Shown here: positions 3,582 to 23,258 of the stretch, one piece after another | How positions within the stretch are numbered: position 1 is the stretch's first letter | Layout: every line of letters starts with the position of its first letter | Assembly: GCA_049650865.1 (NCBI GenBank) | Contig: JBASAY010000211.1 | Coordinates: 43,095 to 107,094 of the forward strand | DNA: 64,000 nucleotides | Reading direction: 5' to 3' | Source of the DNA: Tunicatimonas sp. | Lineage (GTDB): Bacteria > Bacteroidota > Bacteroidia > Cytophagales > Cyclobacteriaceae | Position numbers and translations under genes: made by a program | Notes under the pieces: generated by a model | Told to the model about the DNA's origin: nothing | Databases searched by the model: none | Seen by the model: the letters and a program-made list of their open reading frames with translations, nothing else

Positions 3582-3614
3582 TTTCTGTGTTGAGTTTCGC
3601 CCGAATAACGTTTG

Positions 3615-4464: not shown

Positions 4465-7400
4465 TTACTCGAGGCGTTTGAAATACTCGTTAGCTTCATT
4501 TTTGTAGTACGGATTTAAACGAACCGGTACCGTCTTTAGAAGCTCAATCTCTTGCTCCTTCAGTTTTATATACTCATCAAAGCGCTCCAAGGTTCGCTGT
4601 TCGTAGTCATCCTTGGCCGTTTCGCCCTTCCTTTTGTTATCAAGTTCTTGCTCTCGCATCGATTCTTCTGCTTTAAGCAGCCGGGTCATGATTTGCTTCT
4701 GCCGTTCAATCAACTCCAGAGTAAGCTTCTTATTCACCAGGTCTTGCTCAGTCTGCTCCATCTGCTTCGCAATTTCATCACCGGTGCCCCCGCCGCCTTC
4801 CGACTCTTCCTGGCCTTGCATCTCTTCCATGGCCTGCCGGATCTTCTCCTGCTGCTGCGCTAGTTTGGCAAGCTCTTCTGACAATGCTCGTCCCGATTTA
4901 CCGCTCTTCTTAAGCTCCTGAATGTCCTGATTGAGCTGCTTCTGCAGTTCGCTTAGGTTCATGTTAGAGCGGGTGTTGCCCTGCTTTTGCTGGGGCTTCC
5001 CCATCGCATCGGCCATCTGCTGCTGCATCTGACTAAGAACATCGTTGAGCAGTAGCGCTAGATTATTAATGGAAGTCATCGCAAACTGCTGCTCTCCAAT
5101 TGCCTTGAACTGCTGACGCTCGCGCAGCGATTCTACGCTATTTTCCATGTACTTGTTCATGTCTTTTACCTCACGGGTAACAAACGACTGAATCTGAAAC
5201 ACCCGATTGGCCAACGCCAACAGACTATCTTCAATAATCTGAGCATCATCCATCAGCTTAAGTTGCTCCTGCGACAAATCTATAAACCGAGGGTCATTCT
5301 GTTTCACGTCGCGAAAGTCTTTCATTACCTTTTCTTGATCAAAAGACAGCGTGATCAGGTTATCCAGAATATTGCGCAGGTTGTCCATATCTTCCTGCAT
5401 GGATTCCATCTCCATGCCCTGCTGCATTTGCTGCATCTTCTGCGCCATTTGCTGCATTTTCTGGGCGCTCTTCTGCTGCGACTTTTGCGCTTTGTTACGT
5501 TTCTTCTCGTCTAAAGCCTCCTTGGCTTGTTGCTGCTCTTCCTGAATTTGTTCCTGGTCCTCGCTAAAGTCTTCCATCGGTGAGGGGTTCTTGAGGTCCT
5601 GATTCATCTCCTGCATCTCTTTCATCTCCTCCTGCATTTCCTCAAATTCTTCGTTAAGCGATTCCTGCTGCTCACTCAGTTGCTCGGTGTCTTCAGCTTT
5701 GTCGTCCGTTTTATCGGCTAGCTCCTCTTGCTCTTCAGCCAGTTCGTTCAACTGCTGCTCGAGGTCTTCCAGCTTCATGTCCAGTTTCATACGCTTGAAT
5801 AACTCGAGTGCCCGCTCCAGTTCTTCTTCCAGGTTTTGCTCCTGGTCATTAATCTGCTGCAACTTCTCTTGCATCTGGTCAATGTCCTGCTGCTCGTCCA
5901 GAAGCTTCTTTAGCTCTTCGTACATCTTCTTGGTCTCCTCATCAAGCAGTTCGTCCATCAGGTTTTGCAATTGGCTAATTTGCTTCTGCATCTTCTCGCT
6001 GCGCTCGTCAAACTGCTCGCGCTGCTGATTCATCAGTTCATTCTGTTTCTGCAGTTCCTGAAGCTGCTTCTCCAGTGCTTCGCGTTGCTTCAAAATGTCT
6101 TCAAGCTTCTGTTTGTCCTGCCAGTTGAGTTCTTTTTTTCCTCGTAGCTTTTTCTCCAGGTCATCAACTGCTTCTTCGAGCTGTTCGGCTTGCTGAACGG
6201 TGTTACTAATCTTCGTTTGCGTCTCCGAGGAAGACTTATCAAGATTTTCCCGAACGGTTTTCTGGTCGGGTACCTGGAAAACGTAGGTGCTGGTCTTGGT
6301 AGATTTGTAGCCATTAATGGCGTCATTGTCCCATACCTTCAGAAAGTAGCGAATCTTGTCGCCTGGCTTGAGGCGCAACGTATCGACGTTCCACTGGTGA
6401 TAGTAACTCTGCGTGTTCTGCTTGCGGTTGATTGGTAGGTCGTAGGCCCGGTACCGAGCGGGCGTATCGGAGTCGTTTTCATCCGACTCAAATTTGTAGA
6501 ACAGGGCTAAGCGCGCTAAGCCGTAGTCATCGGATACATTGCCCCCCAGCACCAAAAACTGGTACAGCGTGGTATCCTGCATTTGGTCTAGCGATATCTC
6601 AGGGTGGCGGTCAGGTACGACGTCCAGCAGATAACGAATCTTCCGAAGGTTGCTACTGTACTGGTTCTTGAGGTCAACACGGTAGTGGTCGGTGGCTAAT
6701 GCCTGTTTTTTAAAGGTGAAGGAAGCGTCATCGCTGGGTGAAAGCTGATACGTCTCATTACTTTTTTCAAACGTAAGCGCCATGCTATCGGCCGCCAACG
6801 TGCCGAACCGCCAGCTGATCTCAGTACCCTCGGGCACCTGAAGGTTTCCTACGTTCTCAATACGCTCGTCCTTGCGCTTTAGATAATCCGGATAATCTAA
6901 GTACACACTAAAGTTTTTCAGGTTGGGGCGGTCTACCACCGTGATGTCGTAGGTAGCACTAGAGAACCCGGCGGCCTCGATGTAGTAGGTAGTGTTGCGC
7001 TGAAGGTTCTGAAATACGTGTTCGTACACTCCCTCGCTGTCGGGCAGCATCCTAAACCGCCGCCCCGAAGCGTTGAGGTATACTTTGTCGGGCAGTGAAC
7101 TGCCGGAAAGGCGGAGCCGCACCGGAAAGTCTTCGTTCTTGAAAGCAGTAACCGATCCGGTTTCGACGTCGAACGAGAAGGGAGCTTCCGGCCGATACTC
7201 TTTGTTAAAATTCACGATCCGCGTGGTGCCCTCTGAGAAGAACTGGGGGACGAACAAGAGTAGGATGGCAATAATAGCTGTAGGCAGCGCCAGGTAGCGC
7301 AGGTAGCGTAAGTTCTTCTTCAGATTGATAGCCAGCGGAAACGGTACCACCGAAAGCTGTTGGGTGCGGTGGGCGATGCTGGCCAGCACCAGTGAATTGT

Positions 7401-7776
7401 CGGCTCGAGAGCTTGCCCGGTTCAGCTGCACCATGTTGAGAAGCTTGTCCTGCACGTCGGGAAAGTGGCCGCCCACCCCGCGCGCTGCCTCCTCGTCGCT
7501 CATCTGGCGCGCGGAGAAGGCCAGGCGAAGCAGTGGCGCCAGCACCCATCGGTACAAGAAGAAGGCAAAAACCGACAGAAATAAAAACAAAAGGGTAGCG
7601 CGACCAATAGAGTTAAGACGCGCAGTGTACTCGATAGAATTGAGCAGCAGGTATACCGACAGCACCAGGGCGCCAAAGTAAATGCTACCGCGAAGCAGCT
7701 GATTGACGTAGAACTTTCGCTTGTAGCGCTGCAGTTGCCGAAGGATGCTGTTAAAATCTGATGATGCTTGAGCCAT
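4465..7776 (-). CDS. Large membrane-anchored coiled-coil protein with a Q/E/K/M-rich low-complexity region (possibly DUF4175-like)
   Basis: 1103 aa. Two or three N-terminal hydrophobic helices (IYFGALVLSVYLLL, ATLLFLFLSVFAFFLY, LALPTAIIAILLLFV). A beta-rich middle part. About 450 aa of heptad-like EQ-rich sequence including MQQMAQKMQQMQQGMEMESMQ. The family name is a recollection and is not verified. Confidence 0.8.
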   Translation of the reverse strand: MAQASSDFNSILRQLQRYKRKFYVNQLLRGSIYFGALVLSVYLLLNSIEYTARLNSIGRATLLFLFLSVFAFFLYRWVLAPLLRLAFSARQMSDEEAARGVGGHFPDVQDKLLNMVQLNRASSRADNSLVLASIAHRTQQLSVVPFPLAINLKKNLRYLRYLALPTAIIAILLLFVPQFFSEGTTRIVNFNKEYRPEAPFSFDVETGSVTAFKNEDFPVRLRLSGSSLPDKVYLNASGRRFRMLPDSEGVYEHVFQNLQRNTTYYIEAAGFSSATYDITVVDRPNLKNFSVYLDYPDYLKRKDERIENVGNLQVPEGTEISWRFGTLAADSMALTFEKSNETYQLSPSDDASFTFKKQALATDHYRVDLKNQYSSNLRKIRYLLDVVPDRHPEISLDQMQDTTLYQFLVLGGNVSDDYGLARLALFYKFESDENDSDTPARYRAYDLPINRKQNTQSYYHQWNVDTLRLKPGDKIRYFLKVWDNDAINGYKSTKTSTYVFQVPDQKTVRENLDKSSSETQTKISNTVQQAEQLEEAVDDLEKKLRGKKELNWQDKQKLEDILKQREALEKQLQELQKQNELMNQQREQFDERSEKMQKQISQLQNLMDELLDEETKKMYEELKKLLDEQQDIDQMQEKLQQINDQEQNLEEELERALELFKRMKLDMKLEDLEQQLNELAEEQEELADKTDDKAEDTEQLSEQQESLNEEFEEMQEEMKEMQEMNQDLKNPSPMEDFSEDQEQIQEEQQQAKEALDEKKRNKAQKSQQKSAQKMQQMAQKMQQMQQGMEMESMQEDMDNLRNILDNLITLSFDQEKVMKDFRDVKQNDPRFIDLSQEQLKLMDDAQIIEDSLLALANRVFQIQSFVTREVKDMNKYMENSVESLRERQQFKAIGEQQFAMTSINNLALLLNDVLSQMQQQMADAMGKPQQKQGNTRSNMNLSELQKQLNQDIQELKKSGKSGRALSEELAKLAQQQEKIRQAMEEMQGQEESEGGGGTGDEIAKQMEQTEQDLVNKKLTLELIERQKQIMTRLLKAEESMREQELDNKRKGETAKDDYEQRTLERFDEYIKLKEQEIELLKTVPVRLNPYYKNEANEYFKRLE

Positions 7777-7809: not shown

Positions 7810-8580
7810 TCAGTTCGTCTGCAAGTTTAGCACTACCGGGCAGTGGTCGGAGTGCATTGCCGAGGGAAGCACCGCCGCACCCACTAATGAATTTTGTAAC
7901 GCTTGGGAGGCCATATGGTAGTCAATGCGCCAGCCCAGGTTCTTGGCCCGGGCACCCGCCCGGTAACTCCACCAACTGTAGTTGTGCGGCTCATCGTTAA
8001 AGTAGCGAAAGGTATCGATGAACCCTGCCTCTAAAAATTGACTCACCCAGGCGCGTTCCTCAGGTAAAAATCCGCTACAATTTTTGTTCCTCACCGGGTC
8101 GTGGATATCAATGGGGCGGTGGCAAATATTGTAATCACCGCTAATGATTAAACGAGGAAATTCTTGTTTTAGGTAATCAATGTACTGATAAAAATCGCGC
8201 AGCCACTGCATTTTAAACGACTGCCGCTCGTCGCCAGAACTTCCGGAAGGCATATACACGCTCATAAGCGAGAAATCCGCGAAATCAGCCCGAATCACCC
8301 GCCCTTCCCGGTCGTATACGTCCAGGCCGCAACCGTAGGTAACCGCCCGCGGACGGTGCTTGGTAAGGATCGCCACCCCGCTGTACCCTTTGCGAGAGGA
8401 AGCTTCCATCCAGTACACCTGGTAACCAAGTGCAGCGAAGTCGTCTTCATTGATCTGATCCAGCGAAGCCTTTACTTCCTGGAGACAAACCATGTCCGGG
8501 TCTTCCGCAACCAGCCACGACAAAAAGCCCTTCCGGATCGCCGCCCGAATACCGTTTACGTTGTACGAAATAATTTTCAT
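7810..8580 (-). CDS. xth: Exodeoxyribonuclease III
   Basis: 256 aa. MKIISYNVNGIRA N-terminus, C-terminal SDHCPV, and the overall ExoIII/APE1 pattern. Confidence 0.95.
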   Translation of the reverse strand: MKIISYNVNGIRAAIRKGFLSWLVAEDPDMVCLQEVKASLDQINEDDFAALGYQVYWMEASSRKGYSGVAILTKHRPRAVTYGCGLDVYDREGRVIRADFADFSLMSVYMPSGSSGDERQSFKMQWLRDFYQYIDYLKQEFPRLIISGDYNICHRPIDIHDPVRNKNCSGFLPEERAWVSQFLEAGFIDTFRYFNDEPHNYSWWSYRAGARAKNLGWRIDYHMASQALQNSLVGAAVLPSAMHSDHCPVVLNLQTN

Positions 8581-9068: not shown

Positions 9069-9746
9069 ATGCTAAATGATTTTGTTTCGTTGTTATTTCC
9101 TCGCTGTTGCCTCATCAGTAATGCTCCGTTAGCCCGGGGAGAGCGGTACGTAAGCGTGGCGGCGGGGCAGGCGCTACCCCGCTTCGACCAGCAGCGCCCG
9201 CCCGAAGCAATTCGGCAGCAACTCTATACCTTTGCGCCGGTGCAGCACGCACTGGCCTATTATAAGTTTGCCCGGCACGGCGGCGTTCAACAATTGTTGC
9301 ACCACCTCAAGTACAAGAACTGCCCTGAGGTTGGGGAACTGGCGGGAATGTGGTTTGCCCACGCAATAGTGGACGCAGGATTAAAGGAAGCGTTTGATGC
9401 AATCGTGCCGGTGCCACTGCACCCCAGCAAGCGGCGGCGGCGGGGCTACAACCAGTGCGACTACGTAGCGAAGGGAATGGCCAGCGTGCTGGAGATCCCC
9501 TGGATACAGGATTCATTAATTAAAGTGAAACATAACCAATCGCAAACCCGAAAGAGTCGGTGGGAGCGCTCTGAGAACGTATCCCAGGGATTCGCGCTGC
9601 GAAACGCCGATGCGGTACAGGGCCGCCGGATACTCTTGGTAGACGACGTGATGACCACCGGCGCAACGCTGGGCGAAGGAGCCAAGGTGCTGCTAGAAGG
9701 AGGCGCCCAAGAAGTAAGTATCGCTGCACTGGCGGCGGTGCAGTAG
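9069..9746 (+). CDS. comF: ComF-family phosphoribosyltransferase-domain protein
   Basis: PRTase motif ILLVDDVMTTGATL near the C-terminus. ComF-like N-terminus MLNDFVSLLFPRCC. I prefer the internal ATG at 9069 to the track start at 8991. Confidence 0.8.
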   Translation: MLNDFVSLLFPRCCLISNAPLARGERYVSVAAGQALPRFDQQRPPEAIRQQLYTFAPVQHALAYYKFARHGGVQQLLHHLKYKNCPEVGELAGMWFAHAIVDAGLKEAFDAIVPVPLHPSKRRRRGYNQCDYVAKGMASVLEIPWIQDSLIKVKHNQSQTRKSRWERSENVSQGFALRNADAVQGRRILLVDDVMTTGATLGEGAKVLLEGGAQEVSIAALAAVQ

Positions 9747-9754
9747 CGCCAGCA

Positions 9755-10528
9755 TTACCACAGCAAGCCCAACTGGAAAGCGAAGAACAGCAAGATCATC
9801 AAACCAGCTACCGCCTTATTATCGCTCCGCATCGGAAGCAGCGCAAAGATAGCGCAGAGAATCAGAATCCAGGTGATGAAAAACCGATAGCCCTGGTACA
9901 CACCGTAGGCAGGTTTCACCCAGTACGTTCCCTGATCCCCAAACTCCGCCCGCAACAAAATGCCCAGTCCGGGCGTGGTTATCAAGGTAGCGCGATCGCC
10001 CGGCTTTACCCGAGTGATGTTTTCGTACTTAGCCGTCAGCATCCTCTGCCGAAAGAACACCTTATTGTACATACCAGTCATGGCCGCATGTCCGTAGGAT
10101 ATGGATACAACCTCATCGGGAGTTGCGCGGGGCGGCAATTGGTAGTCAACCATAAATACAAGTTGGGTAAGGGCTACCAGCGATACAATAACTACCAAAA
10201 TACGATTTACCTTGACGGTAGCTACTATCCGCCGACGCAGCATTTCTTCGGCTTCCTGCTGGGCAAACTGGCGGGCAGCGGCGCGACGGCGCTCTTGCTC
10301 TTGGGCGAAGGGGTCCGGTTGGTGGGCCGTAAAACTGCCGGTGGAAGGGGCATTAGGATCGGTTAGGTACTGATACGCCTCGGTAACCTCGATAAATCGG
10401 TCGTGGGCCGCCGGGTCGGGCGAGCGGTCGGGATGGTAGCGCTTTGCCAAACGGCGGTAGGCGCGCTTAATCTCTCGCGCACTAGCGGTTGCGGGCAGGT
10501 TGAGCACGCGCAGGTAGTGTTCTTTCAC
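9755..10528 (-). CDS. J-domain (DnaJ-like) membrane protein
   Basis: 257 aa. N-terminal J domain with the HPD motif (YRRLAKRYHPDRS). Hydrophobic helices later in the protein (ILVVIVSLVALTQLVFMV, FFITWILILCAIFALL, AGLMILLFFAFQLGLLW). Confidence 0.85.
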   Translation of the reverse strand: MKEHYLRVLNLPATASAREIKRAYRRLAKRYHPDRSPDPAAHDRFIEVTEAYQYLTDPNAPSTGSFTAHQPDPFAQEQERRRAAARQFAQQEAEEMLRRRIVATVKVNRILVVIVSLVALTQLVFMVDYQLPPRATPDEVVSISYGHAAMTGMYNKVFFRQRMLTAKYENITRVKPGDRATLITTPGLGILLRAEFGDQGTYWVKPAYGVYQGYRFFITWILILCAIFALLPMRSDNKAVAGLMILLFFAFQLGLLW

Positions 10529-11766: not shown

Positions 11767-11802
11767 GACAATTAGGAAGATTTTGTTAGACAATGAATGA
11801 AG

Positions 11803-11833
11803 CGGCAAAGCTACCAAAGGCTTTGCCGTTTTT
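11803..11833 (+). terminator. Putative rho-independent terminator after the thiolase gene
   Basis: 9-bp stem cggcaaagc / gctttgccg with an 8-nt loop, followed by TTTTT. Confidence 0.6.
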
Positions 11834-11900: not shown

Positions 11901-12089
11901 TTACTTGGAGGTAGGAGCAGATGATAGTTTAGCGTATTCCCGTCTTTTGATCCGCCCTTTGTCAACCGCCTCCTGTAAGCCTTTGAATATTTCATCCATA
12001 GTCTGAACGTAGTCTTCCTCATCTTCGAAAAAACCCTCCTTAATTAGGATGGGGTCAACGTATTCCTCGGTTCTTTTCGTAGTACTCAT
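11901..12089 (-). CDS. Small acidic hypothetical protein (62 aa)
   Basis: ORF only, in an otherwise non-coding stretch and with no recognised motif. See the finding on a possible toxin-antitoxin remnant. Confidence 0.3.
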   Translation of the reverse strand: MSTTKRTEEYVDPILIKEGFFEDEEDYVQTMDEIFKGLQEAVDKGRIKRREYAKLSSAPTSK

Positions 12090-12371: not shown

Positions 12372-15300
12372 ATGCCCAAAGTCCTCACCTACCATAACCT
12401 TACCCACGGCGAACACTGGTTTCCGGCCGACCCCTACGGCAAACGACAAATCGACGCCATCAGCGACCCCGAGGGGGGCAACACCGAGCAGCCTCCTACT
12501 TCTATTCCGAGTCCGTTTGCGCGTATCGACCTGGTGCGCACCGCCTTTAAGAACATTGTGAAAGACCGTAAACTGCTGGGCAATAAAGTCGACCGGAAGT
12601 TAGTAGCCGAGTGCTTCGATGTAGGCGAAGTGTTTTTTAACGTAGAGTACCTTCAGGAAAAGACCCAGATCATCACCTGGGACCGTCGGCGCGATCTGGA
12701 GGCGTTGCTTACTTCGGCCAATCCCCAGCACCGTCGCCTGGGGGAGGTGCTTCAGCTGTACCTAGAACAGGATGCCGCTACCTACAACTTCGATCAGATC
12801 GACCGGCTGCATATCGTGCAGTATAACTACAAGGTAATCGGGGGAACCTCACCGGCCACCCTGTTCTTCTCCGCGCCCAATGATCTGTCCTTCGTGGATA
12901 TTCCGATGGAACGCAATCGCTTGTTTAGCAACGACTACCCGCCCCTGTACGCCCGCAGCGCCAGCTACCAGAAGTACTGGTACGGCTTGCTTCGGTTCTT
13001 TCAGTCGGCAGGCGGCACCGTGCCAGACTTTCGGGCTTGCTTTAGTGAGGTAGCCGAGTACCTGGATGCGAACCTCGAAATCTTACGCACCGAGCAACCG
13101 GTGCTCTACGAAGAAATCAACCAATTTACCCTAACCGATTTCTACGACCACTACGCCGAATTAGACACCGGCCAGTCGGGAGACTTGGTAAAGCTACTCG
13201 GTTACCCCTTGCGCAAGAAGAAGATCGACGTGGGTTCGGTAGCTACCTCGAGCGACTTCGTGATCCAATCTTCTAAATACCAAGGGAACACTCCCCCCCT
13301 GGTGCTGCAAAACCAGCTGAACAAACCCTACCGCTACGTAAACGATACCTGGGACAGTCACGTGGCGGTTCCCTACTGGGTAGATACACCGTTGGAAGAG
13401 CGAAAGTTGCCCGGCCAAGTGATATCGTACCCCTATCTGACGGTGAGCGACTTTCTGGAGCCGTATCTCATTCGGTTGGTGTACCCGGTAAACGAGCAGA
13501 AATTCTTCGACGGCAACGTAGGGCGAACCAAAGAGCAGAAGGGGTTCATCCTGCCCATAAAGCCTGCCTTCTTCGACTACTTCGACGTGGCGGATTTGCG
13601 GGGAAGCGTGCCCGGAGGCAAAAAGTTTTTCGAGATGGAGCCCCGGGCGGCCGGAGGGGTACGGGTAACGCTGCGCGTTCCGGTAAAGCAGGACTATATC
13701 ACGCTAGAGCGCATCTACCTCTCCTCTATCAGCGAGGGCGACGGTCTAACGCCCGACGAAGAAAATAACAAGGGAGTAGTGATTGACAGTCAGTTCGGTG
13801 TAACCCTCTATCCGTTTATCAAGATGCGCGGCAAGGCCGACCCGGCCCACTACCGGGTGCAACTCATCGACCGCGACGTAAGTCCCTACAACAAGCACCA
13901 CCGCTACCAACTGCGGTTCTTCCAGAACCAGGACAATCAGGAGGTCAAGATAGAAGCGCAGCAGCAGCGCAGTAACAAGCAGCTGGACGACCGGGCTACC
14001 TCGCAGTACTATGTGCTTGAGGATGAATTTGACTACATCCAGGTGCAGAATCAGGTGGCCCAGGGAATTATTATCCCGAAGTTCCCGGAGTACCACCGCG
14101 GCAACGATGCCTTTAGCTTCGCTATCGACTTTGGCACCACCAATACCCACGTGGAGTACCAGGTGAACGACCGCGACCCGCGCCCCTTCGACATCACCGA
14201 TGACGACGTGCAGATTGCTACGCTGCACGACCCTGAGTTTGCTGACGCCAGCGCCGACTTCGGGGGCAGCGGAGCCACCCTGATTCGGGATCTGATCCCG
14301 CAGGAGTTTCTGCCGCGTTACCTGGGACCGGGCTACGAGCACTACTTTCCGCAGCGCACCGTGCTGGGCGAAAGCAAGAACCTGGACCTGGAGCAGACTA
14401 CCTACGCCCTGGCGGACTTCAACATTCCTTTCGCTTACGGTAAGCGTCCCATCAACGGCAACGTGCGCATCAGCAGCGACCTGAAGTGGTCGAACTACAC
14501 CAAGAATACCGACGATCGGCGCCGGGTGGAAGCGTTCTTTGAGAACCTGCTGCTGCTCATTCGTAATAAGGTGCTGCTCAACCGGGGCAACTTAGCGAAG
14601 ACGCGCATTATTTGGTTTTACCCGTCGAGCATGCTGCCCAACCGGCGTAGCAGCCTGGAGAGCACCTGGACCAAACTGGTGCACCGCTACATTACCCCCG
14701 AGCGCGATCCGATTAAACTATCCGAGAGCATCGCTCCCTTCTACTTCTACAAAAACAAGATGGGGCGTAGCGCCGCCGACAAACCCGCCGTGGGCATCGA
14801 CATCGGGGGGGGCACCACCGATATCGTGGTGTTCCAGAACAACCAGCCCGTGCTGCTCACGTCGTTTCGCTTTGCGGCCAACGCCCTGTTCGGCGACGGC
14901 TTTAATGGTTCGGTGATCACCAACGGATTCGTAAGGCGCTATGCCGATCTCATCGACAAAACCCTCACGATCGTTGACCCCAATACCGCCGACTACCTGC
15001 GCGAGAACTCGCGGGAGATGATCAGCTTCCTGTTTGAACTAGAGAACAACGATCGCTACGCCAAACTGCTGCCTATTTCCTTTAGCAGCTTACTGAAGGA
15101 AGATGAAGATCTGAAAATTTTGTTTGTGGTGTTCTACGGTGCTATCATCTATCACCTGGCGCAACTGATGAAGGCGGCCAACCTGGCAATGCCCCGCAAC
15201 ATTTTGTTCAGCGGACGCGGTTCTAAGGTGATCAACATTACCGACAGCAACCTACGACTGGATAGCTTGACGGTGCTCACGCAGAAAATCTTCGAGAAAG

Positions 15301-15788
15301 TATTTCAGCAAAGCGCCTCGCAAATTGAACTGGTTCAGTACGAACGGCCAAAGGAGATTACCTGCAAGGGTGGGCTGCTGAGCGAGAATCCGGTAGATAT
15401 CGATGATATCAAAAAGGTGCTACTCGGGGCCGGACAACAGTTTGTTATTCCTGAGAAGGCCATCAAGTACCCGGACATCGACGACCGGACGCTTACTCGG
15501 GTAGTAAATGAGGTAGATCAGTTTCTTAAGTTACTGTTTGAAGTGCACGACGAGTACAACTTCTCGCACCATTTCGGGGTGAACCCTACTTACTTAAATC
15601 GCTATCGAGCCTGGCTAACGACTGATTTGATGGAGTACCTAAAATCCGGACACCAGATGAAACTCGATGAGCTAGCCGGTAATCAGAACGTAAACGTAGA
15701 GGAAACCCTGTTCTTCTATCCTTTGGTGGGGGGGCTCAACCGCTTAGCCTACAAGATTGCCACCGAGCTCAGCGAGGTAGAACAGTGA
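12372..15788 (+). CDS. Giant Hsp70/actin-fold (ASKHA) ATPase-domain protein with an uncharacterised ~580-aa N-terminal region
   Basis: 1138 aa with no signal peptide or TM. Phosphate-1 motif AIDFGTTNTHVEY (nt 14121-14159). Phosphate-2 motif VGIDIGGGTTDIVVF (nt 14790-14834). Adenosine-type motif ILFSGRGSKV (nt 15201-15230). Confidence 0.9.
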   Translation: MPKVLTYHNLTHGEHWFPADPYGKRQIDAISDPEGGNTEQPPTSIPSPFARIDLVRTAFKNIVKDRKLLGNKVDRKLVAECFDVGEVFFNVEYLQEKTQIITWDRRRDLEALLTSANPQHRRLGEVLQLYLEQDAATYNFDQIDRLHIVQYNYKVIGGTSPATLFFSAPNDLSFVDIPMERNRLFSNDYPPLYARSASYQKYWYGLLRFFQSAGGTVPDFRACFSEVAEYLDANLEILRTEQPVLYEEINQFTLTDFYDHYAELDTGQSGDLVKLLGYPLRKKKIDVGSVATSSDFVIQSSKYQGNTPPLVLQNQLNKPYRYVNDTWDSHVAVPYWVDTPLEERKLPGQVISYPYLTVSDFLEPYLIRLVYPVNEQKFFDGNVGRTKEQKGFILPIKPAFFDYFDVADLRGSVPGGKKFFEMEPRAAGGVRVTLRVPVKQDYITLERIYLSSISEGDGLTPDEENNKGVVIDSQFGVTLYPFIKMRGKADPAHYRVQLIDRDVSPYNKHHRYQLRFFQNQDNQEVKIEAQQQRSNKQLDDRATSQYYVLEDEFDYIQVQNQVAQGIIIPKFPEYHRGNDAFSFAIDFGTTNTHVEYQVNDRDPRPFDITDDDVQIATLHDPEFADASADFGGSGATLIRDLIPQEFLPRYLGPGYEHYFPQRTVLGESKNLDLEQTTYALADFNIPFAYGKRPINGNVRISSDLKWSNYTKNTDDRRRVEAFFENLLLLIRNKVLLNRGNLAKTRIIWFYPSSMLPNRRSSLESTWTKLVHRYITPERDPIKLSESIAPFYFYKNKMGRSAADKPAVGIDIGGGTTDIVVFQNNQPVLLTSFRFAANALFGDGFNGSVITNGFVRRYADLIDKTLTIVDPNTADYLRENSREMISFLFELENNDRYAKLLPISFSSLLKEDEDLKILFVVFYGAIIYHLAQLMKAANLAMPRNILFSGRGSKVINITDSNLRLDSLTVLTQKIFEKVFQQSASQIELVQYERPKEITCKGGLLSENPVDIDDIKKVLLGAGQQFVIPEKAIKYPDIDDRTLTRVVNEVDQFLKLLFEVHDEYNFSHHFGVNPTYLNRYRAWLTTDLMEYLKSGHQMKLDELAGNQNVNVEETLFFYPLVGGLNRLAYKIATELSEVEQ

Positions 15789-15836: not shown

Positions 15837-17090
15837 ATGCGCTATCTTAAATTCCCGCTACTGTTCGTGATCTTGCTAGCGAGCAGCTCGTTTCAGGCGG
15901 GCGTAATCCGCGAAGACTTTGCCCGATGGGTAGACTACGCCGCCTGGCGGGTGGTGGATGCGTACATGCAAGACTACGTGCGGCTGCGCCCCGACATGAC
16001 CGCCGAAAAGGAAGGGTATCGATTGTTCCAAGAAACCTACAACGCAGAAAATTATAGTCTATCAAATCCCCCCCCTAGCGAAGCGGTGCGCCTGTTTCTG
16101 GTCAGCCACGACTGGCGCGGAACCGCGCTCAACCTGTACGACCCGTTGGTTGAAACCAAAGAAGCGTACCAGAATGAGTGGAGCGCAGCACAAGCTGCTG
16201 AGGTATTGCAAGAACGCATTGCGGCGGTAAGCCCCGAAGCGCTGGGAGCCCAAAGCGACGCCGACTACACCACCCTATCCACCACGAAAGAACAGCTGAC
16301 TACGGAGATTACGTCCGGCCTCGGGCAGTCCGAAGCAACCGCGGATACCGCTACCGGAGCAAACGCTGCCGAAGTCGACGCTACGGCTCTACAGGAAGAC
16401 AACACCCGTGGATTTGCGCTGCCTACGGCTTCCAATAGTCAGGGCGCCACCAATGGCGGGATGTTTAGCTACGCTATCAACCCGATCTCACTGGGAGCGG
16501 CGGTTGTGCTGTTACTCCTGCTGCTTTACTTGTTTAAGATTATTAGGGGGTTAGACCAGCGGGTAGACCAGCACAGCAAGCGCATTGAAGACCTTACCTC
16601 TCGCCTGCTCATGAGAAAGGACCCGGTATCGGCTGAGGAAGCGAAGCAGCTAAAGTCTAGGATTGCTAGTTTAGAGGAGCAACTGAAGAAGTTAACTGCT
16701 GTTCCACCGCCGCCCGCAAGACGCAGCCCCCCTCCTACCCCCCCTGCCCCCAAGGCAAAGGAGTACTACCTGTCCACTCCCAACCAAGACGGTACCTTTA
16801 ACGCTAGCTCGATGTCAGAGCAGTTTCGTCCGTCAGCCTCGGTGTACAAATTTATGGTTACGCAAAAAGATGGAGCTCACTGGGCGGAGTTTAGCGTAGC
16901 CGATGATTCGGAAGCGATGAAGGATGCACTGAGTTCACCTAATAGCTACTTGGCGCCCGTGTGTGAGAGCGAGAATGCCTACTCGCCGGGCGCTAAGCGT
17001 ATCGTAAACGTCCGCCCGGGGCGGGCGGTGCGGCAGGGCGATAAGTGGATAGTGAAATCCGAGCAGAAAGCCCGCATCCGGTATGAGTAG
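15837..17090 (+). CDS. Bitopic membrane protein: periplasmic N-domain, TM, coiled coil, Pro-rich linker, C-terminal globular domain
   Basis: 417 aa. Signal-like N-terminus MRYLKFPLLFVILLASSSFQA. T/A/S-rich spacer. TM ISLGAAVVLLLLLLYLFKII followed by basic residues. Heptad region (AEEAKQLKSRIASLEEQLKKL). PPPPARRSPPPTPPAP. A ~105-aa C-terminal domain. Confidence 0.8.
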   Translation: MRYLKFPLLFVILLASSSFQAGVIREDFARWVDYAAWRVVDAYMQDYVRLRPDMTAEKEGYRLFQETYNAENYSLSNPPPSEAVRLFLVSHDWRGTALNLYDPLVETKEAYQNEWSAAQAAEVLQERIAAVSPEALGAQSDADYTTLSTTKEQLTTEITSGLGQSEATADTATGANAAEVDATALQEDNTRGFALPTASNSQGATNGGMFSYAINPISLGAAVVLLLLLLYLFKIIRGLDQRVDQHSKRIEDLTSRLLMRKDPVSAEEAKQLKSRIASLEEQLKKLTAVPPPPARRSPPPTPPAPKAKEYYLSTPNQDGTFNASSMSEQFRPSASVYKFMVTQKDGAHWAEFSVADDSEAMKDALSSPNSYLAPVCESENAYSPGAKRIVNVRPGRAVRQGDKWIVKSEQKARIRYE

Positions 17091-18528
17091 CGTAGAGACG
17101 TTTGCGGTGGTGTGCCTGGGGGCAGCCTGGCTGGCCCAAGCGTGGTACGTTCGCCGCTTGCTAGAGCAGTTGCGCCGGTTGCGGCAGAGTGTTCCCCGCC
17201 CCGAACAACTGAGCGTGCGCCCCGTGCTCATTCCTACGGCCGCGCTAGCGCAGACCCCAGCCGAAGAATTGGCCCAACAGTACGGTACCCAACCCCCTGC
17301 CCCGCCCGCCGCTACGCCAACCATTAAAGTGTCGCTGCTGCACACCGAAACCCCGGCCGCTTCAGAACACACGCTAACCACCGCTCTCAACGGTTACTTC
17401 ATTCGTAGTCGGGGAGCGGTGGTGGACTTTACCCTGGTTCAAAATTTAACCGAGCGGCACATTCAGGTGAGTCAGCAAGACCTACGACTACAGGCGGGGT
17501 TTCCCTTGCTCATTGGGCTCGTCGCGGTGCTACTGGCGAGTACGGTGGGTCTGCTGTTTTTACCCAACCTGCCCGCGGCCCTCATCGACCGGATTGCTTT
17601 GGCCAGCACGGCCGCCCTATTTTTTAGCGGAGTGAAGTGGACGGCCGGGGCGGTACTCACCGGGGCGCTTATTACGATGATAACCCTGGGTTGGGCGTAT
17701 CCCCGCACCCGGGGCGAAGTGCTACGGCGCAAGAATAAGTTGCTTAGCCTCGTGCAGATCGAGCTACTACCTACCCTGTTTCAGGACGCCACCCACAGTT
17801 TGCAGCTACTGCAGACCAGCATTACGAGCTTCCAGCACGGTTTTGCCGATAGCATTGCGTCGCTACAGGAGATGGTTAGCCGCAACTTTGATACGTTGAA
17901 GGCGCAGGAGCGTATTGCTGAGGCGCTGCAGAAAGTAGACGTGATGAAGCTGACCAACGCCACCGTAGATATGTTCGAGACGCTCGACCGAAGCGGTAGC
18001 GAACTGAAAAAGTTTCGCGACTACCTGTCTGAAATGAACCACCTGGTGGCCAGCACTACCGCCCTTAACGAAAAGGTGAACCAATTTCTTTACCGTACCG
18101 ACCATTTGGAAACCATTGCCGAGAAGGTGAAGGGAACCCTAGACCAGAACGATCGCCTGCACCACTTTATCGCTTCGCACTTTTCGGAACTGGAAAGCCG
18201 GGGGCACTTGATACAGCAAGCGGTAGTGAAAGTAGACGATGTACTAGACAAAAGCCTGGGCGAACTGATGGAACACACCCAACACAAGATTCGGGCGATC
18301 CGCGACTTGTCGGCGCAGGAAGAAAATCAACTGCTCAAAACCTACGAAGAAAATAAGCACGTATTTGGCAAGCTAGCCCGCATTGATGACCTACACCAGA
18401 ACTTTACTGCGTATAAGAGCCAGAATCTGGAAACCCAGCGGCAGATGCTGGAACAACTTCAAATCCTTACAGAACATCTGACTAAAGCTGGCGGCGGCGG
18501 ATTCCTCAAAAAATTATTTGGTTCGTAA
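17083..18528 (+). CDS. Polytopic membrane protein with a long C-terminal coiled-coil tail
   Basis: 481 aa. The start overlaps the upstream stop by 8 nt (ATGAGTAG). TM1 FAVVCLGAAWLAQAWYV followed by RRLLEQLRRLR. Pro-rich QPPAPPAATP. TMs FPLLIGLVAVLLASTVGLLFL and ALFFSGVKWTAGAVLTGALITMITLGWAY. About 260 aa of helical, heptad-like sequence. Confidence 0.8.
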   Translation: MSSVETFAVVCLGAAWLAQAWYVRRLLEQLRRLRQSVPRPEQLSVRPVLIPTAALAQTPAEELAQQYGTQPPAPPAATPTIKVSLLHTETPAASEHTLTTALNGYFIRSRGAVVDFTLVQNLTERHIQVSQQDLRLQAGFPLLIGLVAVLLASTVGLLFLPNLPAALIDRIALASTAALFFSGVKWTAGAVLTGALITMITLGWAYPRTRGEVLRRKNKLLSLVQIELLPTLFQDATHSLQLLQTSITSFQHGFADSIASLQEMVSRNFDTLKAQERIAEALQKVDVMKLTNATVDMFETLDRSGSELKKFRDYLSEMNHLVASTTALNEKVNQFLYRTDHLETIAEKVKGTLDQNDRLHHFIASHFSELESRGHLIQQAVVKVDDVLDKSLGELMEHTQHKIRAIRDLSAQEENQLLKTYEENKHVFGKLARIDDLHQNFTAYKSQNLETQRQMLEQLQILTEHLTKAGGGGFLKKLFGS

Positions 18529-18551: not shown

Positions 18552-19301
18552 ATGCGAATGATGAGAGACTGGATCTGGACGCTCGCGATTTCGTGTTTAC
18601 TTTCTGGTTGCCAGAGCTGCTCGCGCTCGGCCCAAAAAGCCCAGGAGCATCATCGGCCCACGGTAAACAAGACCCTTTCTGAAAAGGTGTTAGTAGACGC
18701 CCCAACCCCTTCTATCCCCCTTAATGATGTAGTGCCGGTACGAGAAGAATCGCTGGCCGAAATTATCGCCCGGGCGGAACCCTGCGTTTTCGTGGTGCAC
18801 ACCTATAACCGCAAGGGCAAACGTATTGGCCAGGGAACGGGGTTCTTTATTGAGGATTCGGGCGTTGGGGTGAGCAACTATCACGTATTCGAGAAAGGAA
18901 GACGCTGGCAGATTCGCACGACCGATGGGCAAACGCACGCGGTAAAGCGGATCATGTACCAGAGCAAGAAGTTCGACTACGTGGTGTTCCAGGTAGACAC
19001 CCGGCAGCGCATGCCCTACCTTTCTTTGGGCGACATGGCACCCATGAAGGGAGAAGATATTGTAGTGCTAGGCAACCCCCGGGGGTTGGAAAGTACCGCC
19101 TCCCGCGGAATCGTTTCGTCTATTCGCGACTACCGGGGGCAAGAAAGCGCAATCATTCAGGTGGATGCCGCTATCTCGCCAGGGAGCAGTGGCAGCCCGG
19201 TGATGAACCGGCAAGGGGAAGTGGTTGGCATTGCTACTATGAAGGTGAACGGCTGCGAAAGCTGCAATTACGCATTCAACATTAATCTGCTCAACCACTA
19301 A
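18552..19301 (+). CDS. Trypsin-like (S1/HtrA-like, no PDZ) serine protease lipoprotein
   Basis: 249 aa. Lipobox LLSGC. Putative triad contexts: His in VSNYHVF (nt 18882-18884), Asp in FDYVVFQVD, Ser in ISPGSSGSPVMN (nt 19173-19208). Confidence 0.85.
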   Translation: MRMMRDWIWTLAISCLLSGCQSCSRSAQKAQEHHRPTVNKTLSEKVLVDAPTPSIPLNDVVPVREESLAEIIARAEPCVFVVHTYNRKGKRIGQGTGFFIEDSGVGVSNYHVFEKGRRWQIRTTDGQTHAVKRIMYQSKKFDYVVFQVDTRQRMPYLSLGDMAPMKGEDIVVLGNPRGLESTASRGIVSSIRDYRGQESAIIQVDAAISPGSSGSPVMNRQGEVVGIATMKVNGCESCNYAFNINLLNH

Positions 19302-19341: not shown

Positions 19342-19917
19342 ATGATTCTACTCAGGACAATCAGTATTGTCTTATGCTACATTGGCTTCAGTTTTCCTAG
19401 TACGGCCCAATCGTTCCGGGCTCACGCGGTACTGGGACTCAATGCCGCCCAGATCGACGGCGACGGGTTATGGGGTTATAATCAAGCAGGAATTCTGGGG
19501 GGCGTAAAGGTTGCTCTTCCTTTGTCCGATGCCATTTCGGCCCAAGCGGGGATGCTCTACAGCGCTAAGGGGAGCCGCTTTAGTGAGTTTGAGCCATTCT
19601 CTATCTGGCGACTTACCTACCTAGAGCTTCCGGTAGAGGTACAGGGGCGTTTGGTAAATAAGGTGTATCTATTCGGCGGATTGTCTCCAAACTACCTTAT
19701 TAAGGCCCAGCAGGAAAATGCCTCCGGTTTCACCGCCGATCGTTCTAGCTACCGATCCTTTGATTTGTGCTTCACCGCCGGGATTCTCTACCGGTTTGCC
19801 GACAATGCAGGCGTGCAGGCCCGGGTGAGCGATGGATTACGGAGCAGCAACAATTTTCAGTACCTACGTAATAGGGTGCTTAGCTTCGCGTTGGTGTACT
19901 ATTTCTCAGACGAATAG
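19342..19917 (+). CDS. Small outer-membrane beta-barrel protein (porin-family-like)
   Basis: 191 aa. Signal peptide ending STAQS. Alternating hydrophobic beta-strand pattern and aromatic-rich C-terminal strand LSFALVYYF. Confidence 0.7.
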   Translation: MILLRTISIVLCYIGFSFPSTAQSFRAHAVLGLNAAQIDGDGLWGYNQAGILGGVKVALPLSDAISAQAGMLYSAKGSRFSEFEPFSIWRLTYLELPVEVQGRLVNKVYLFGGLSPNYLIKAQQENASGFTADRSSYRSFDLCFTAGILYRFADNAGVQARVSDGLRSSNNFQYLRNRVLSFALVYYFSDE

Positions 19918-20034: not shown

Positions 20035-22269
20035 ATGAAAGATATAATAGTTTATTCAATCAACAGGCAAACTCGCAGCTTAGCGAGTTGCCAAAAGGGC
20101 GCCCATCGGTCTATTCGGCACCTATTGTTAACCCTTTTGTGTTTGGCGGGACTGGTCAAGCAGACCCAGGCGCAAACCGACACCATCCACTGGATGCCCC
20201 CGGTGTGGGAGAACCGAGGGGCCACTACCCGGGTGCTTCCGGTGCAGATGCAGATTACCACAGAATTTGCGTCTGCCCAAGTTAATGTCACCCTCTCTGA
20301 TGGGACTCCTATTGCTTCTCAAACCATTATGGCCGGTCAGCCCTGGATATTTCCGCTCAGTACTGTGCAGGGAATGACCTTTGAGGCTAACGTAGCTGAG
20401 AAGGACAAAGGGATTCTAATCCACTCAGACGTACCCGTGCGGGTCTACTGCCAGGGCGTGTCCCGGGCAAACCAGTACTTTGTTACCCTAAAGGGAAGGC
20501 ACGCGTTGGGAACTGAGTTTTACGCGGGTTCACAAACCCTTATTCGCGACGGTGCGTGGCCGGGTACTGACTTCGGTCACTACGACCTGCACTTCGTTTC
20601 GGTGATGGCTACCGAAGACGACACGAAGGTTACCATCACTCCCCCTAATGGAATCGTACTGTTCGGAGGAAACCAGCCCGTGGAAGTTATCCTCAACAAG
20701 CACGAAACCTATTTGGTCCGCAACACCTCATCAAAAGGGCCTAACTCTGATAACGTGGCGAACAACTTGACGGGCTCGCACATCGAGGCCAGTAAACCCG
20801 TAGCGGTGCTGTCGGGAGGGCAGCACCAGAAGCTAATAGATTCGAAGGATGCCGACGCGGGCGTCGACCAGTTGGTTCCCCTGCGGGGCAACGGCTTCTA
20901 CTCTATCGGCCGCCAGTACGTGGTTATCAAAGGGTCAACCGAGAATATTAGTGCGGTAAACCCCGACTACGCTACCATTATTGGCACGCAAGACCAAACG
21001 GACATCTACGTAGACGGTGACCCGACTCCGGTGGCTACCATCGGCGCCGGAGAGTATTATAACTACGTGCTACCCGGACAAGCGAGCGATATTGGTACCC
21101 CCCACTACATTGAAACCAGTAAGGAAGCGTATCTGTACCATTTCTCAGGCATCCGCCGCCAGGAACTCGGTATGGTGCTCGTACCATCGATTGAGTGCAC
21201 CGGCAACCGCTACATCGAGTACACCAAGCTAGGCGATACCGCCTACCACAACGTGGTGCATATCACGGCTCCCATCAAAGCCTTTGAAACTTCTACCAGC
21301 CTTACCATCAACGGGCTGCCCTACACCAACTTCGACGCAACAGTTAGTCCGGTACCGGGCCGCAACGATTGGGCAACCATCAGCTTCGGTGAGGCAAAGT
21401 CGCTAAGTAACCACGCGCCCCTGCCCGAAAACATCGTAGTAGAATCGAACGTATCGTTTCACCTGTCAATCATCGCGGGCAACCGGTATGGTGCTTCCTA
21501 CGGATACTTGGCCGGATTCACCGCATCGCTAGAGGTGCTAGACCCCCGCGACCTGCTGCCTACCGATATGTACGTAGTGGATACGGTGATGCAGGGTGCC
21601 ACGCACGAGCACTGCCTGGAACTGGCAAGTTGCGACGAAGAATCAAAGATTGTGGGCGTAGCCCCAGGAAGCCACACCAAAGAGGCGGAACAACTCACCG
21701 CCCGCTGTCTCACCTATACCGCATCAAGCGACTACGTGGGTGGCGACACGCTGCTAGTAACGGTAAACAACCGCGCGGGTATTCCCCGCCAAGTTCGGCT
21801 TATCTATCAAGTAGAGGCCCTACCGAAACAGGATAGCGTAGTGGTAGAAGATTCGGTAGTTACCACGCCTCCGATGGTAGTGGAAGCCCCCACCCCGCCG
21901 GATACGACAATGGTGAGTGAAGAAGGTCAGGAAGAGGAAGAAGTAGAAGAACAAGAGCAAGAAACTGAGTGTGACCAGGAACTGGCGATTTCAGAGGGTT
22001 TCTCACCGAACGGCGACGGTAATAACGAAACGTGGTACATCCGCGGCATTACCTGCTACCCCAACAACGAGGTAACGGTTTACAATCGCTGGGGAAGCTT
22101 GGTGTACCAGACCGCCGCCTACGACAACGTGACCCGGCGGTGGAACGGCCGAACCCAGGGCGGAGCGCTAGCAAGCAACCGCGGCCTCCCCTTCGGCACC
22201 TACTACTTCATCGTGAACCTGGGCGACGGTAGTCCGCTTCGCAAGGGCTACGTAGTGGTCCACCCGTAA
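20035..22269 (+). CDS. Secreted T9SS cargo protein with a type-B (gliding motility-associated) C-terminal sorting domain
   Basis: 744 aa with a signal peptide. The last ~90 aa (GFSPNGDGNNETWYIRGI...VYNRWGSLVYQ...WNG...LPFGTYYFIV) fit the type-B CTD pattern. Acidic linker EEGQEEEEVEEQEQE. The N-terminal ~500 aa possibly resembles an IgGFc-binding-like beta domain (unverified). Confidence 0.85.
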   Translation: MKDIIVYSINRQTRSLASCQKGAHRSIRHLLLTLLCLAGLVKQTQAQTDTIHWMPPVWENRGATTRVLPVQMQITTEFASAQVNVTLSDGTPIASQTIMAGQPWIFPLSTVQGMTFEANVAEKDKGILIHSDVPVRVYCQGVSRANQYFVTLKGRHALGTEFYAGSQTLIRDGAWPGTDFGHYDLHFVSVMATEDDTKVTITPPNGIVLFGGNQPVEVILNKHETYLVRNTSSKGPNSDNVANNLTGSHIEASKPVAVLSGGQHQKLIDSKDADAGVDQLVPLRGNGFYSIGRQYVVIKGSTENISAVNPDYATIIGTQDQTDIYVDGDPTPVATIGAGEYYNYVLPGQASDIGTPHYIETSKEAYLYHFSGIRRQELGMVLVPSIECTGNRYIEYTKLGDTAYHNVVHITAPIKAFETSTSLTINGLPYTNFDATVSPVPGRNDWATISFGEAKSLSNHAPLPENIVVESNVSFHLSIIAGNRYGASYGYLAGFTASLEVLDPRDLLPTDMYVVDTVMQGATHEHCLELASCDEESKIVGVAPGSHTKEAEQLTARCLTYTASSDYVGGDTLLVTVNNRAGIPRQVRLIYQVEALPKQDSVVVEDSVVTTPPMVVEAPTPPDTTMVSEEGQEEEEVEEQEQETECDQELAISEGFSPNGDGNNETWYIRGITCYPNNEVTVYNRWGSLVYQTAAYDNVTRRWNGRTQGGALASNRGLPFGTYYFIVNLGDGSPLRKGYVVVHP

Positions 22270-22300
22270 TCAAACTTCTCAGCATTAAGAAAAGCAAGCT

Positions 22301-23257: not shown

Positions 23258-23258
23258 T

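Follow-up and report, generated by a model that had tools for sequence, protein, structure and literature searches.

A large actin/Hsp70-fold ATPase in a conserved Bacteroidota gene cluster with a tubulin-like GTPase and ZorA-like membrane proteins

Gene D and its ATPase core

We analyzed a 64,000-nucleotide stretch of DNA from Tunicatimonas sp. (contig JBASAY010000211.1, positions 43,095 to 107,094; the whole stretch is called the window here), in which the gene of main interest, designated D, encodes a protein of 1138 amino acids (aa). The D protein represents a large family that has neither a name nor a Pfam model and that is an architecturally distinct new family within the ASKHA superfamily, and its gene belongs to a conserved, widespread, and previously undescribed cluster, made up of genes A to F, that occurs across the Bacteroidota. 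In the window, the genes for D, E, F, a protease, and an outer-membrane beta-barrel protein form a same-strand array with gaps of 48, -8, 23, and 40 nucleotides (nt). The features of D and of the genes that follow it are listed below, with the confidence of protein models given as the predicted local distance difference test (pLDDT).

11799..11832, + strand: terminator-like hairpin of 14 bp with a T-run, downstream of the thiolase gene; upstream edge of the D-E-F transcription unit
12372..15788, + strand: gene D, signature protein of the cluster, a predicted cytoplasmic ASKHA (actin/Hsp70-fold) ATPase; ATG start, 1138 aa
12372..12512, + strand: N-terminal segment of D, aa 1-47, a candidate partner-binding peptide; pLDDT <50 in both models, W16 and D32 invariant
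12492..12548, + strand: PPTSIPSPFARIDLVRTAF, aa 41-59, the most conserved block of D by column identity
12519..13151, + strand: N-terminal alpha/beta domain, aa 50-260, from model secondary structure; no relative detected
13152..14096, + strand: beta-rich region, aa 261-575, strand-rich by DSSP, its C-terminal part resembling tandem Ig-like beta-sandwiches
14103..15476, + strand: ASKHA nucleotide-binding core, aa 578-1035; Foldseek matches with probability 1.00
14121..14159, + strand: phosphate-1 loop AIDFGTTNTHVEY, aa 584-596; D586, G588, T589, N591, and H593 invariant
14259..14486, + strand: family-specific insert between phosphate 1 and phosphate 2, aa 630-705; segments with pLDDT <50, invariant columns
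14721..14741, + strand: connect-1 segment SESIAPF; E785, S786, and P789 invariant in 14/14 proteins
14790..14834, + strand: phosphate-2 loop VGIDIGGGTTDIVVF, aa 807-821; D810, G812-G814, T815, and D817 invariant
15201..15230, + strand: adenosine motif ILFSGRGSKV, aa 944-953; G948 and S951 invariant
15483..15782, + strand: C-terminal helical bundle, aa 1038-1137; model helices 1038-1062, 1072-1100, and 1115-1137
15837..17090, + strand: gene E, 417-aa bitopic membrane protein by sequence and hydropathy, co-conserved directly after D
17083..18528, + strand: gene F, MotA/ExbB/ZorA-like membrane protein of 481 aa, about 280 of which form a helical cytoplasmic tail; 8-nt overlap with E
18552..19301, + strand: trypsin-like serine protease (S1/HtrA-type, no PDZ) with a lipoprotein-type signal; Pfam Trypsin_2, 1.3e-27

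An earlier note on this DNA had described the 1138-aa open reading frame (ORF) at 12372-15788 and quoted motifs from it, all of which were located by translation at the positions listed above. The encoded protein is 100% identical to WA958_19700, a hypothetical protein from a Tunicatimonas sp. metagenome-assembled genome (MAG). The same note had seen no transmembrane (TM) motif in the first 580 or so residues, and a hydropathy scan of the whole of D found no TM helix; the sole hydrophobic stretch, aa 914-932, lies inside a well-modelled helix (H915-935, block pLDDT 91-95), part of the helical region that separates the phosphate-2 loop from the adenosine motif. A 198-aa antisense ORF inside D (13746-14342, - strand) was rejected as a gene, its seeming conservation in a related locus (L005) being a shadow of D's own.

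The AlphaFold2 model of D was built on a 33-sequence family alignment (45-91% identity to the window protein) and had a mean pLDDT of 78.7 and a predicted TM-score (pTM) of 0.63, with low confidence only at aa 1-47 and in parts of aa 630-705. When this model was compared to the PDB using Foldseek, 394 matches were obtained at E<=1e-3 and all 50 of those listed were ASKHA proteins, with E values of 2.5e-9 for MreB, 1.1e-7 for the nucleotide-binding domain of BiP, 1.4e-7 for actin, and 1.9e-7 for ParM. These matches bear out the earlier assignment of the C-terminal half to an Hsp70/actin-like core with its motifs in the right order, and the duplicated RNaseH-like fold of the ASKHA superfamily was found in D by comparison of the model structure. 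The spacing between phosphate 1 and phosphate 2, previously put at about 220 aa, is 224 aa when measured from D586 to D810, and where the earlier note had seen no DnaK-like substrate-binding domain after the core, the model has only a helical bundle of approximately 100 aa. D thus shares with MreB, ParM, actin, and the Hsp70 nucleotide-binding domain the same fold and the same motif order (phosphate 1, connect-1 Glu, phosphate 2, and adenosine), but it is about 3 times larger, having in addition the 578-aa N-terminal region, an insert of approximately 100 aa, and the C-terminal helical bundle, and its sequence identity to these proteins is 10-14%.

The active-site residues of D were then compared between family members. 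The phosphate-1 core, AIDFGTTNTH (aa 584-593), kept D586, G588, T589, N591, and H593 in 14/14 divergent homologues. In the connect-1 segment, we take E785 to be the equivalent of the catalytic Glu in the Hsp70 NEPTAA motif and the MreB EEP motif, which are established features of ASKHA proteins. All of the nucleotide-binding residues, including E785 and S786, were invariant in the 33-sequence alignment as well as in the 14 divergent proteins (29-69% identity); the earlier note had proposed that aligned homologues be checked for these residues, and they were not lost. Because the nucleotide-binding residues are invariant down to 29% identity, the D family is not expected to be one of pseudo-ATPases, and as judged from its sequence D is an ASKHA ATPase with an apparently intact active site.

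The family to which D belongs is large. Among the candidates scored, 1,187 homologues of D were found at E<=1e-3, almost all of them full length and none of them named, and an exhaustive profile search gave 2,113 family representatives at 50% identity, 1,024 of which had E<=1e-30. Nearly all of the best 150 of these 2,113 representatives aligned end to end to D, at approximately 1,100-1,200 aa. The earlier note had described an N-terminal half fused to an ATPase core, and both halves are indeed present, but the word "fused" misleads: the halves were never found apart in the representatives listed, which argues that D has one ancient fixed architecture and is not the product of a recent fusion.

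Scans of D with Pfam, NCBIfam, and PADLOC models found no family at threshold. The sub-threshold matches, to FtsA, Ppx-GppA, EutA, and hydantoinase models, were all on the phosphate-2 loop, which is also the stretch matched by Pfam SrfB and by Ppx, MreB, and FtsA in the PDB. In agreement with the earlier statement that D does not fit MreB, FtsA, ParM, PilM, DnaK, HscA, or HscC, none of these family models reached threshold. Pfam FtsA gave a weak match in 33/33 family members (16-21 bits, compared to a cut-off of 31.8) that was limited to the phosphate-2 loop and to profile positions 1-35 of 127, Pfam MreB_Mbl matched 5 of the 33 members with E values of at least 0.19, and the PilM and StbA models matched none of the 33. 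PDB sequence searches with either the single D sequence or the full family profile yielded phosphate-2-loop noise only. The confident full-length match to a characterized family that the earlier note had allowed for was not found, and literature searches turned up no description of the D family or of its gene combination.

The first 580 or so residues, which had been called unplaceable, gave no Pfam, NCBIfam, PADLOC, PDB-profile, or Foldseek match. A family sequence profile of the N-terminal half had 0 matches in the PDB at E<=10, and Foldseek had 0 matches at E<=1e-3 in both the PDB and BFVD; the weak Foldseek matches (E values of at least 1.1e-3, root mean square deviation 15-20 A) were to generic tandem Ig-like sandwiches. 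A separate model of aa 1-578 (pLDDT 75) consisted of an alpha/beta domain followed by the beta-rich region. Residues 41-60 had a mean column identity of 0.87, the highest of any 20-residue block in D, compared to 0.84 for the phosphate-1 block, and I45, P46, P48, F49, A50, L54, and A58 were invariant in 14 proteins at 29-69% identity. Within the insert between the two phosphate loops, P648, F659, P660, R662, N684, and F687 were invariant, and an invariant LKW triplet (aa 704-706) starts at the insert end, with W706 just outside it (nt 14487-14489). From this conservation, we infer that the N-terminal peptide and the phosphate-loop insert may be interaction surfaces. For the discovery of new folds, this N-terminal region of 578 aa makes a promising target.

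Genes conserved with D

We examined the surroundings of D in loci (numbered with the prefix L) that are stretches fetched around D homologues and annotated with hidden Markov models built here, and that give no estimate of prevalence. In 19 nonredundant loci, A-B-C-D were collinear and were mostly followed by E, F, and a gene for a MotB-like protein. These loci came from Flavobacterium, Spirosoma, Hymenobacter, Solirubrum, Rudanella, Prevotella, and Sodaliphilus, from one Leptospiraceae-labelled MAG, and from IMG/VR contigs. A Rikenellaceae locus that starts at the contig edge (L015) carried D-E-F-MotB.

The first three genes of the cluster encode two membrane-associated proteins and a GTPase. 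A is a lipoprotein with an ExSGSM...D motif resembling a metal-ion-dependent adhesion site (MIDAS), in which E57 and D152 were invariant and S59 and S61 near-invariant; its vWA fold is unconfirmed, since VWA_2 matched 1/13 members (E=0.13) and there was no PDB match. B is a protein of approximately 135 aa with three TM helices. C, a GTPase 464-537 aa long, carries T1-like GIGGTG and T4-like GGTGAAG motifs and has no coiled-coil extension. Pfam Tubulin matched 12/13 C members and Tubulin_2 matched 9/13, many homologues have precomputed PF13809 assignments, and by these matches C is predicted to be a Tubulin_2-type GTPase.

The two genes that follow D encode membrane proteins. In E, a signal peptide and a presumably periplasmic N-domain precede the TM helix (aa 217-235), after which come a coiled coil, a Pro-rich linker, and a C-terminal globule of approximately 100 aa that is predicted to be cytoplasmic. 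It is this C-terminal domain that is the conserved part of E, and a PDB profile search with E gave coiled-coil noise only. F of the window is homologous to F of the Flavobacterium locus L001 (E=2.5e-57), which matched PADLOC ZorA2 (5.7e-8), matched Pfam MotA_ExbB at its cut-off, and had ZorA (8QYH_A) as its top, weak PDB match (E=0.11). PADLOC ZorA models were matched by 6/11 F members, the best at 8e-9, and gave no direct match to the window's own F. The tail of F matched only coiled coils, and P141, G145, G194, and T198 were invariant in the TM helices. The flavobacterial F proteins (L001, 14835-16292; L011, 15072-16382) have an extra C-terminal TM helix that the window F does not have, and this helix would return the tip of the coiled coil to the membrane, unlike the free tail of ZorA.

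The MotB-like protein, of approximately 200-270 aa, follows F in most lineages. It matched PADLOC ZorB at 3.8e-12, and the only solved chains that it matched at E<=0.01 were those of ZorB (8QYD_F and 8VVN_B). Its FW.SY.DLMT segment, with an Asp at the start of the TM helix, was kept in 9/9 of the proteins examined. A protease gene lies directly after F in L005, L007, and L009 and after F and MotB in L030, L031, L033, and L036; its presence both in the window's subclade and in other cluster variants suggests that the protease is a recurrent accessory component. Most lineages therefore add a ZorB-like subunit, a trypsin-like lipoprotein protease, or both. In the Prevotella-type loci (Prevotella and Sodaliphilus), A-B-C-D and a short E are followed by a gene for a 280-aa protein with weak zinc-ribbon matches, and because these loci stop at E, the invariant core of the cluster appears to be A-E. 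One of them is from a cultured oral isolate, Prevotella sp. oral taxon 299 F0039 (L028; NC_022111.1, 616284-637727), where it lies on a 1.77-Mb "plasmid" and has A-B-C-D, the short E, and the 280-aa protein without adjacent stator genes; the PLSDB record NC_022111.1 carries no annotation for this stretch. This strain could serve as an experimental host.

The Tunicatimonas lineage has the cluster in two pieces. In the window and in relatives with 82-91% identity (L007, L008, and L025), D-E-F come after a thiolase gene, with A-B-C missing there. A 68%-identical relative has the order purK-purE-A-B-C-D-E-F-protease, and two large contigs (6.44 and 6.78 Mb) have purK-purE-A-B-C without D-E-F. The cluster of C proteins includes two partial proteins of the window's own Tunicatimonas MAG (WA958_22110 and WA958_11285), and members of the C and D protein clusters are on contigs of the same sizes (6,783,985, 6,443,711, 596,298, and 1,427,552 bp). 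Because A-B-C are kept elsewhere in the same genomes, the window appears to hold one half of a complete system. Loss of A-B-C from the window's lineage was considered and ruled out, the module being kept at a separate locus beside purK-purE. The IMG/VR contig L036 (1-17159) carries D, F, MotB, and the protease and has no recognizable A-B-C in the 7.9 kb upstream; here the cluster may have been split a second time, independently.

Among the 2.9 million contigs of IMG/VR, eight had the full cluster. In one of these variants (L030), integrase-family genes at 3170-4396 (+ strand) and 17280-18344 (- strand) bracket A-B-C-D-E-F-MotB-MotB-protease, and this contig is 99.9% identical to L031 and L033, which are from different samples. 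The integrase-bracketed locus had no nucleotide similarity to known phages. Because the integrase genes bracket the whole cluster, carriage on an integrative element is suggested, and this variant looks like the cargo of such an element. Toxin-antitoxin genes (PIN_3 and RelE) and transposases are inside or beside some of the clusters. In L026, a DDE transposase gene (4971-5945, - strand) lies between B and C and has not destroyed the cluster, and in L005 and L006 a PIN_3 toxin gene and a preceding 99-aa ORF, which is a possible antitoxin, lie between C and D (9288-9992). Identity to the window D was 43% for the Leptospiraceae-labelled protein, 47% for Flavobacterium, and 31% for Hymenobacter, which is in the same order as the window; by these comparisons, D identity does not track taxonomy. 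The flanks of the cluster differ between L001 and L003, although their D proteins are 82% identical.

Possible roles of the cluster

Two of the closest known systems are Zorya and the FtsZl1 operons. In Zorya, the ZorA5B2 proton motor senses phage invasion and the ZorA tail relays the signal to cytoplasmic effectors (PMC11946911). As in Zorya (PMC11946911, PMC11890865), F is predicted to be a MotA-family protein with a long coiled-coil cytoplasmic tail, the hallmark of ZorA, its MotB-like partner is closest to ZorB by both PADLOC and PDB searches and keeps the Asp, and the motor genes travel with genes for cytoplasmic proteins. Unlike Zorya, the cluster has no homologues of ZorC, ZorD, ZorE, ZorF, or ZorG in PADLOC scans, its cytoplasmic components have an actin fold (the ATPase) and a tubulin fold (the GTPase), and its stator genes come last and not first. 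None of the Zorya types catalogued in the literature has an actin-fold or tubulin-fold partner.

The second system is that of the FtsZl1 (Tubulin_2)-vWA-OmpA operons, for which Makarova and Koonin predicted a membrane-remodelling role in 2010 (PMC2875224). Like these operons, the cluster has a divergent Tubulin_2-type GTPase, membrane proteins, and an OmpA-like peptidoglycan-binding protein, and A has a MIDAS-like motif. The likeness is incomplete: C does not have the coiled coil and alpha-helical C-domain of the FtsZl1 proteins of approximately 1,000 aa, and no P-loop GTPase or protein kinase partners were seen. The nine partner families B1-B9 of that study were considered for D and rejected, as none of them fits and none is described as a large actin-fold protein (PMC2875224). 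We regard the system as a new variant in which Zorya-like and Tubulin_2-centered systems meet.

The actin-fold and tubulin-fold nucleoside triphosphatases (NTPases) are the two great cytoskeletal families, and the known bacterial cognate pair is FtsA-FtsZ in division. D and C resemble that pair in being an actin-fold ATPase and a tubulin-fold GTPase encoded side by side, with both proteins predicted to lie at the cytoplasmic face of the inner membrane, but in contrast to that pair they are both highly divergent, and their genes come in the opposite order (C-D) and lie among non-division genes. Canonical ftsA and ftsZ are presumably located elsewhere in cluster-bearing genomes. C-D is a second, strongly conserved side-by-side actin-/tubulin-fold pair, recurring across the phylum, including in human gut and oral Prevotella, and it is often linked to a Zorya-like motor whose sole characterized relatives signal phage invasion.

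Reasoning by analogy, we tentatively favor the reading, whose chances we would put somewhat below even, that the cluster encodes a Zorya-like surveillance machine that spans the envelope and has two cytoplasmic NTPases as the recipients of its signal. In such a machine, a disturbance of the envelope would be sensed jointly by an ion-driven F5:ZorB2-type stator, anchored to the peptidoglycan, and by those parts of A and E that lie in the periplasm, and the signal would pass through the tail of F and the C-terminal domain of E to C and D. Binding and hydrolysis of ATP by D could then act as an actin-like assembly or a conformational switch, working with the GTPase C at the membrane, while the beta-sandwich-rich N-terminal half of D and its ultra-conserved N-terminal peptide would provide docking surfaces for partners or targets. 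Its output would most likely serve to contain an invader or, as the other option, to remodel membranes. A conflict-type role is supported by the analogy to Zorya, the integrase-bracketed variant, the toxin and transposase neighbors, and the departure of D identity from taxonomy. If the role is immune, the system would be a mechanistically new Zorya-type branch with NTPase switches as effectors instead of nucleases. We regard it as possible, with considerable reserve, that these genes define a new class of envelope-spanning machine in which an ion-driven, ZorAB-like 5:2 stator is coupled, mechanically or allosterically, to a cognate pair made up of a tubulin-like GTPase and a giant actin-fold ATPase with a novel 580-aa set of domains. 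Such a motor-controlled actin/tubulin module would serve either immunity or envelope remodelling across the Bacteroidota and would have no counterpart characterized by experiment.

Several results weigh against the surveillance reading. Homologues of D were found in none of 50,697 phage records and in only 1/72,556 plasmid records, a 1.77-Mb Prevotella replicon. In the Cytophagales, the cluster is syntenic with housekeeping genes (purK/purE, thiolase, and MutS2) across 64-91% identity, and such stable synteny, together with the persistence of the split halves, is atypical for defense islands. Neither F nor MotB adjoins the cluster in the Prevotella and Sodaliphilus loci, and the window and its subclade have F with no adjacent ZorB-like gene, the protease being there instead. 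No PADLOC model recognizes A, B, C, D, or E, and neither a nuclease nor any other recognizable effector domain was found. Finally, Foldseek scores of D were alike for the MreB/ParM and Hsp70 groups and so do not separate a polymerizing protein from a clamping one.

Some of these same results favor a constitutive cytoskeletal or membrane-remodelling machine, in which C and D would form a membrane-associated filament or scaffold pair, comparable to FtsZ-FtsA, that is tethered through B, E, and A, is energized by the stator, and shapes the envelope, makes vesicles, or positions envelope complexes. Such a role would agree with the one predicted for the FtsZl1-vWA-OmpA operons. The near absence of D from plasmids and its absence from phages, the stable housekeeping synteny in the Cytophagales, and the persistence of both half-clusters would all be expected of such a machine, as would a Tubulin_2-type GTPase directly beside an actin-fold ATPase. 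D has its best structural matches in MreB and ParM, both of which form filaments, and its membrane and OmpA-like partners are reminiscent of the FtsZl1 system (PMC2875224). We nevertheless consider this role somewhat unlikely: the cluster has a seemingly patchy distribution, D identities are at odds with taxonomy, integrase genes flank one variant on both sides, the flanks of L001 and L003 differ, it is ZorA and ZorB in particular that F and the MotB-like protein resemble, and C does not have the FtsZl1 coiled-coil extension of approximately 500 aa, nor is the vWA fold of A confirmed. If remodelling is the role, the cluster would be a new cytoskeleton-like envelope machine.

It is distinctly less probable that D is a dedicated Hsp70-like chaperone or unfoldase that holds or remodels a client (for instance lipoprotein A, the protease, or the stator) while it is being assembled or exported, with the N-terminal beta-sandwich region as the client-binding module in place of a DnaK substrate-binding domain. 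The Hsp70 and BiP nucleotide-binding domains are among the top structural matches (E~1e-7), neither the catalytic Glu nor either of the phosphate-loop Asp residues varies, a large part of D outside the catalytic core is beta-rich, and its partners are secreted or membrane proteins. Pfam HSP70, however, had no match in 33/33 family members at E<=1, and there was no NCBIfam match either; in addition, the N-terminal half is unlike the Hsp70 substrate-binding domain, and no J-domain or nucleotide-exchange partner is conserved.

The earlier note had offered the large SrfB-type proteins as one possible comparator, but that D, as a distant relative of SrfB, belongs to a toxin or virulence factor of several proteins is, in our view, very improbable. 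Like D, SrfB (PF07520), the middle protein of the SrfABC cytotoxin, is approximately 1,000 aa long with an ASKHA-type phosphate-2-like segment in mid-protein, and it works in a three-gene operon (PMC6950479). The comparison held to the extent that weak Pfam SrfB matches were found in 8/33 family members (best E=7e-4), but these were below the 27.1-bit gathering score and limited to the phosphate-2 loop, and the window protein had no match. Rescanned singly in two members, the matches scored 16.5 and 11.8 bits over 17-27 residues, at profile positions 552-578 of 992. SrfA and SrfC family models matched none of the neighbors in the window or L001, and srfABC was reported from Proteobacteria (PMC6950479), whereas the D family is from Bacteroidota. 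Membership of D in the SrfB family was rejected, the similarity being confined to the one loop. That D is a metabolic ASKHA enzyme (a sugar or acid kinase, exopolyphosphatase, hydantoinase/oxoprolinase, or reactivase-type protein) lying by chance beside membrane-protein genes can hardly be credited: Ppx-GppA matched sub-threshold in 29/33 members and Hydant_A_N, Hydantoinase_A, EutA, and MutL did so as well, but these matches are confined to the generic phosphate-2 loop, the top Foldseek matches are MreB, Hsp70, actin, and ParM and not kinases, no metabolic genes are conserved around the cluster, and the gene order that D strictly keeps with C, E, and F throughout the phylum points to a common machine.

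Other features of the window

Other genes noted in the window are as follows.

4465-7776, - strand: 1103-aa DUF4175 protein, upstream; no link to the cluster in the tests made
7810-8580, - strand: endonuclease/exonuclease/phosphatase-family protein, upstream; no link to the cluster in the tests made
9755-10528, - strand: DnaJ-domain protein (J domain aa 7-59), 1.8 kb upstream of D
19342-19917, + strand: 191-aa outer-membrane beta-barrel protein, after the protease
20035-22269, + strand: cargo protein with a type IX secretion system type-B C-terminal sorting domain
22301-23257, + strand: PorP/SprF family protein
23259-25448, + strand: PorE/CHU_0125-like OmpA protein

The DnaJ-domain gene was considered as a source of a co-chaperone for D and was rejected, as the pairing is not conserved in relatives; no such gene was among those called beside D in L007, L008, and L025, and its position in the window is therefore probably coincidental. 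The gap upstream of D is 605 bp long and has 40% GC, compared to 53% for the window. An Rfam scan of the D locus found no RNA element, and a scan for sigma-70 promoters, the one promoter type covered, found 7 sites in the locus, compared to 5.2 expected by chance. A 62-aa acidic ORF in the AT-rich gap (11901-12089, - strand) has no Pfam match and is identical at 53/62 positions in L007 (9346-9534, - strand); possibly it was left behind by the rearrangement that brought D-E-F to this site. Homologues of the beta-barrel protein are syntenic with the cluster in L007, L008, and L025 and lie on its opposite side, beside purK, in L005 and L009. Just downstream of the beta-barrel gene, the last three genes listed above make up a type IX secretion neighborhood (20035-25448, + strand).

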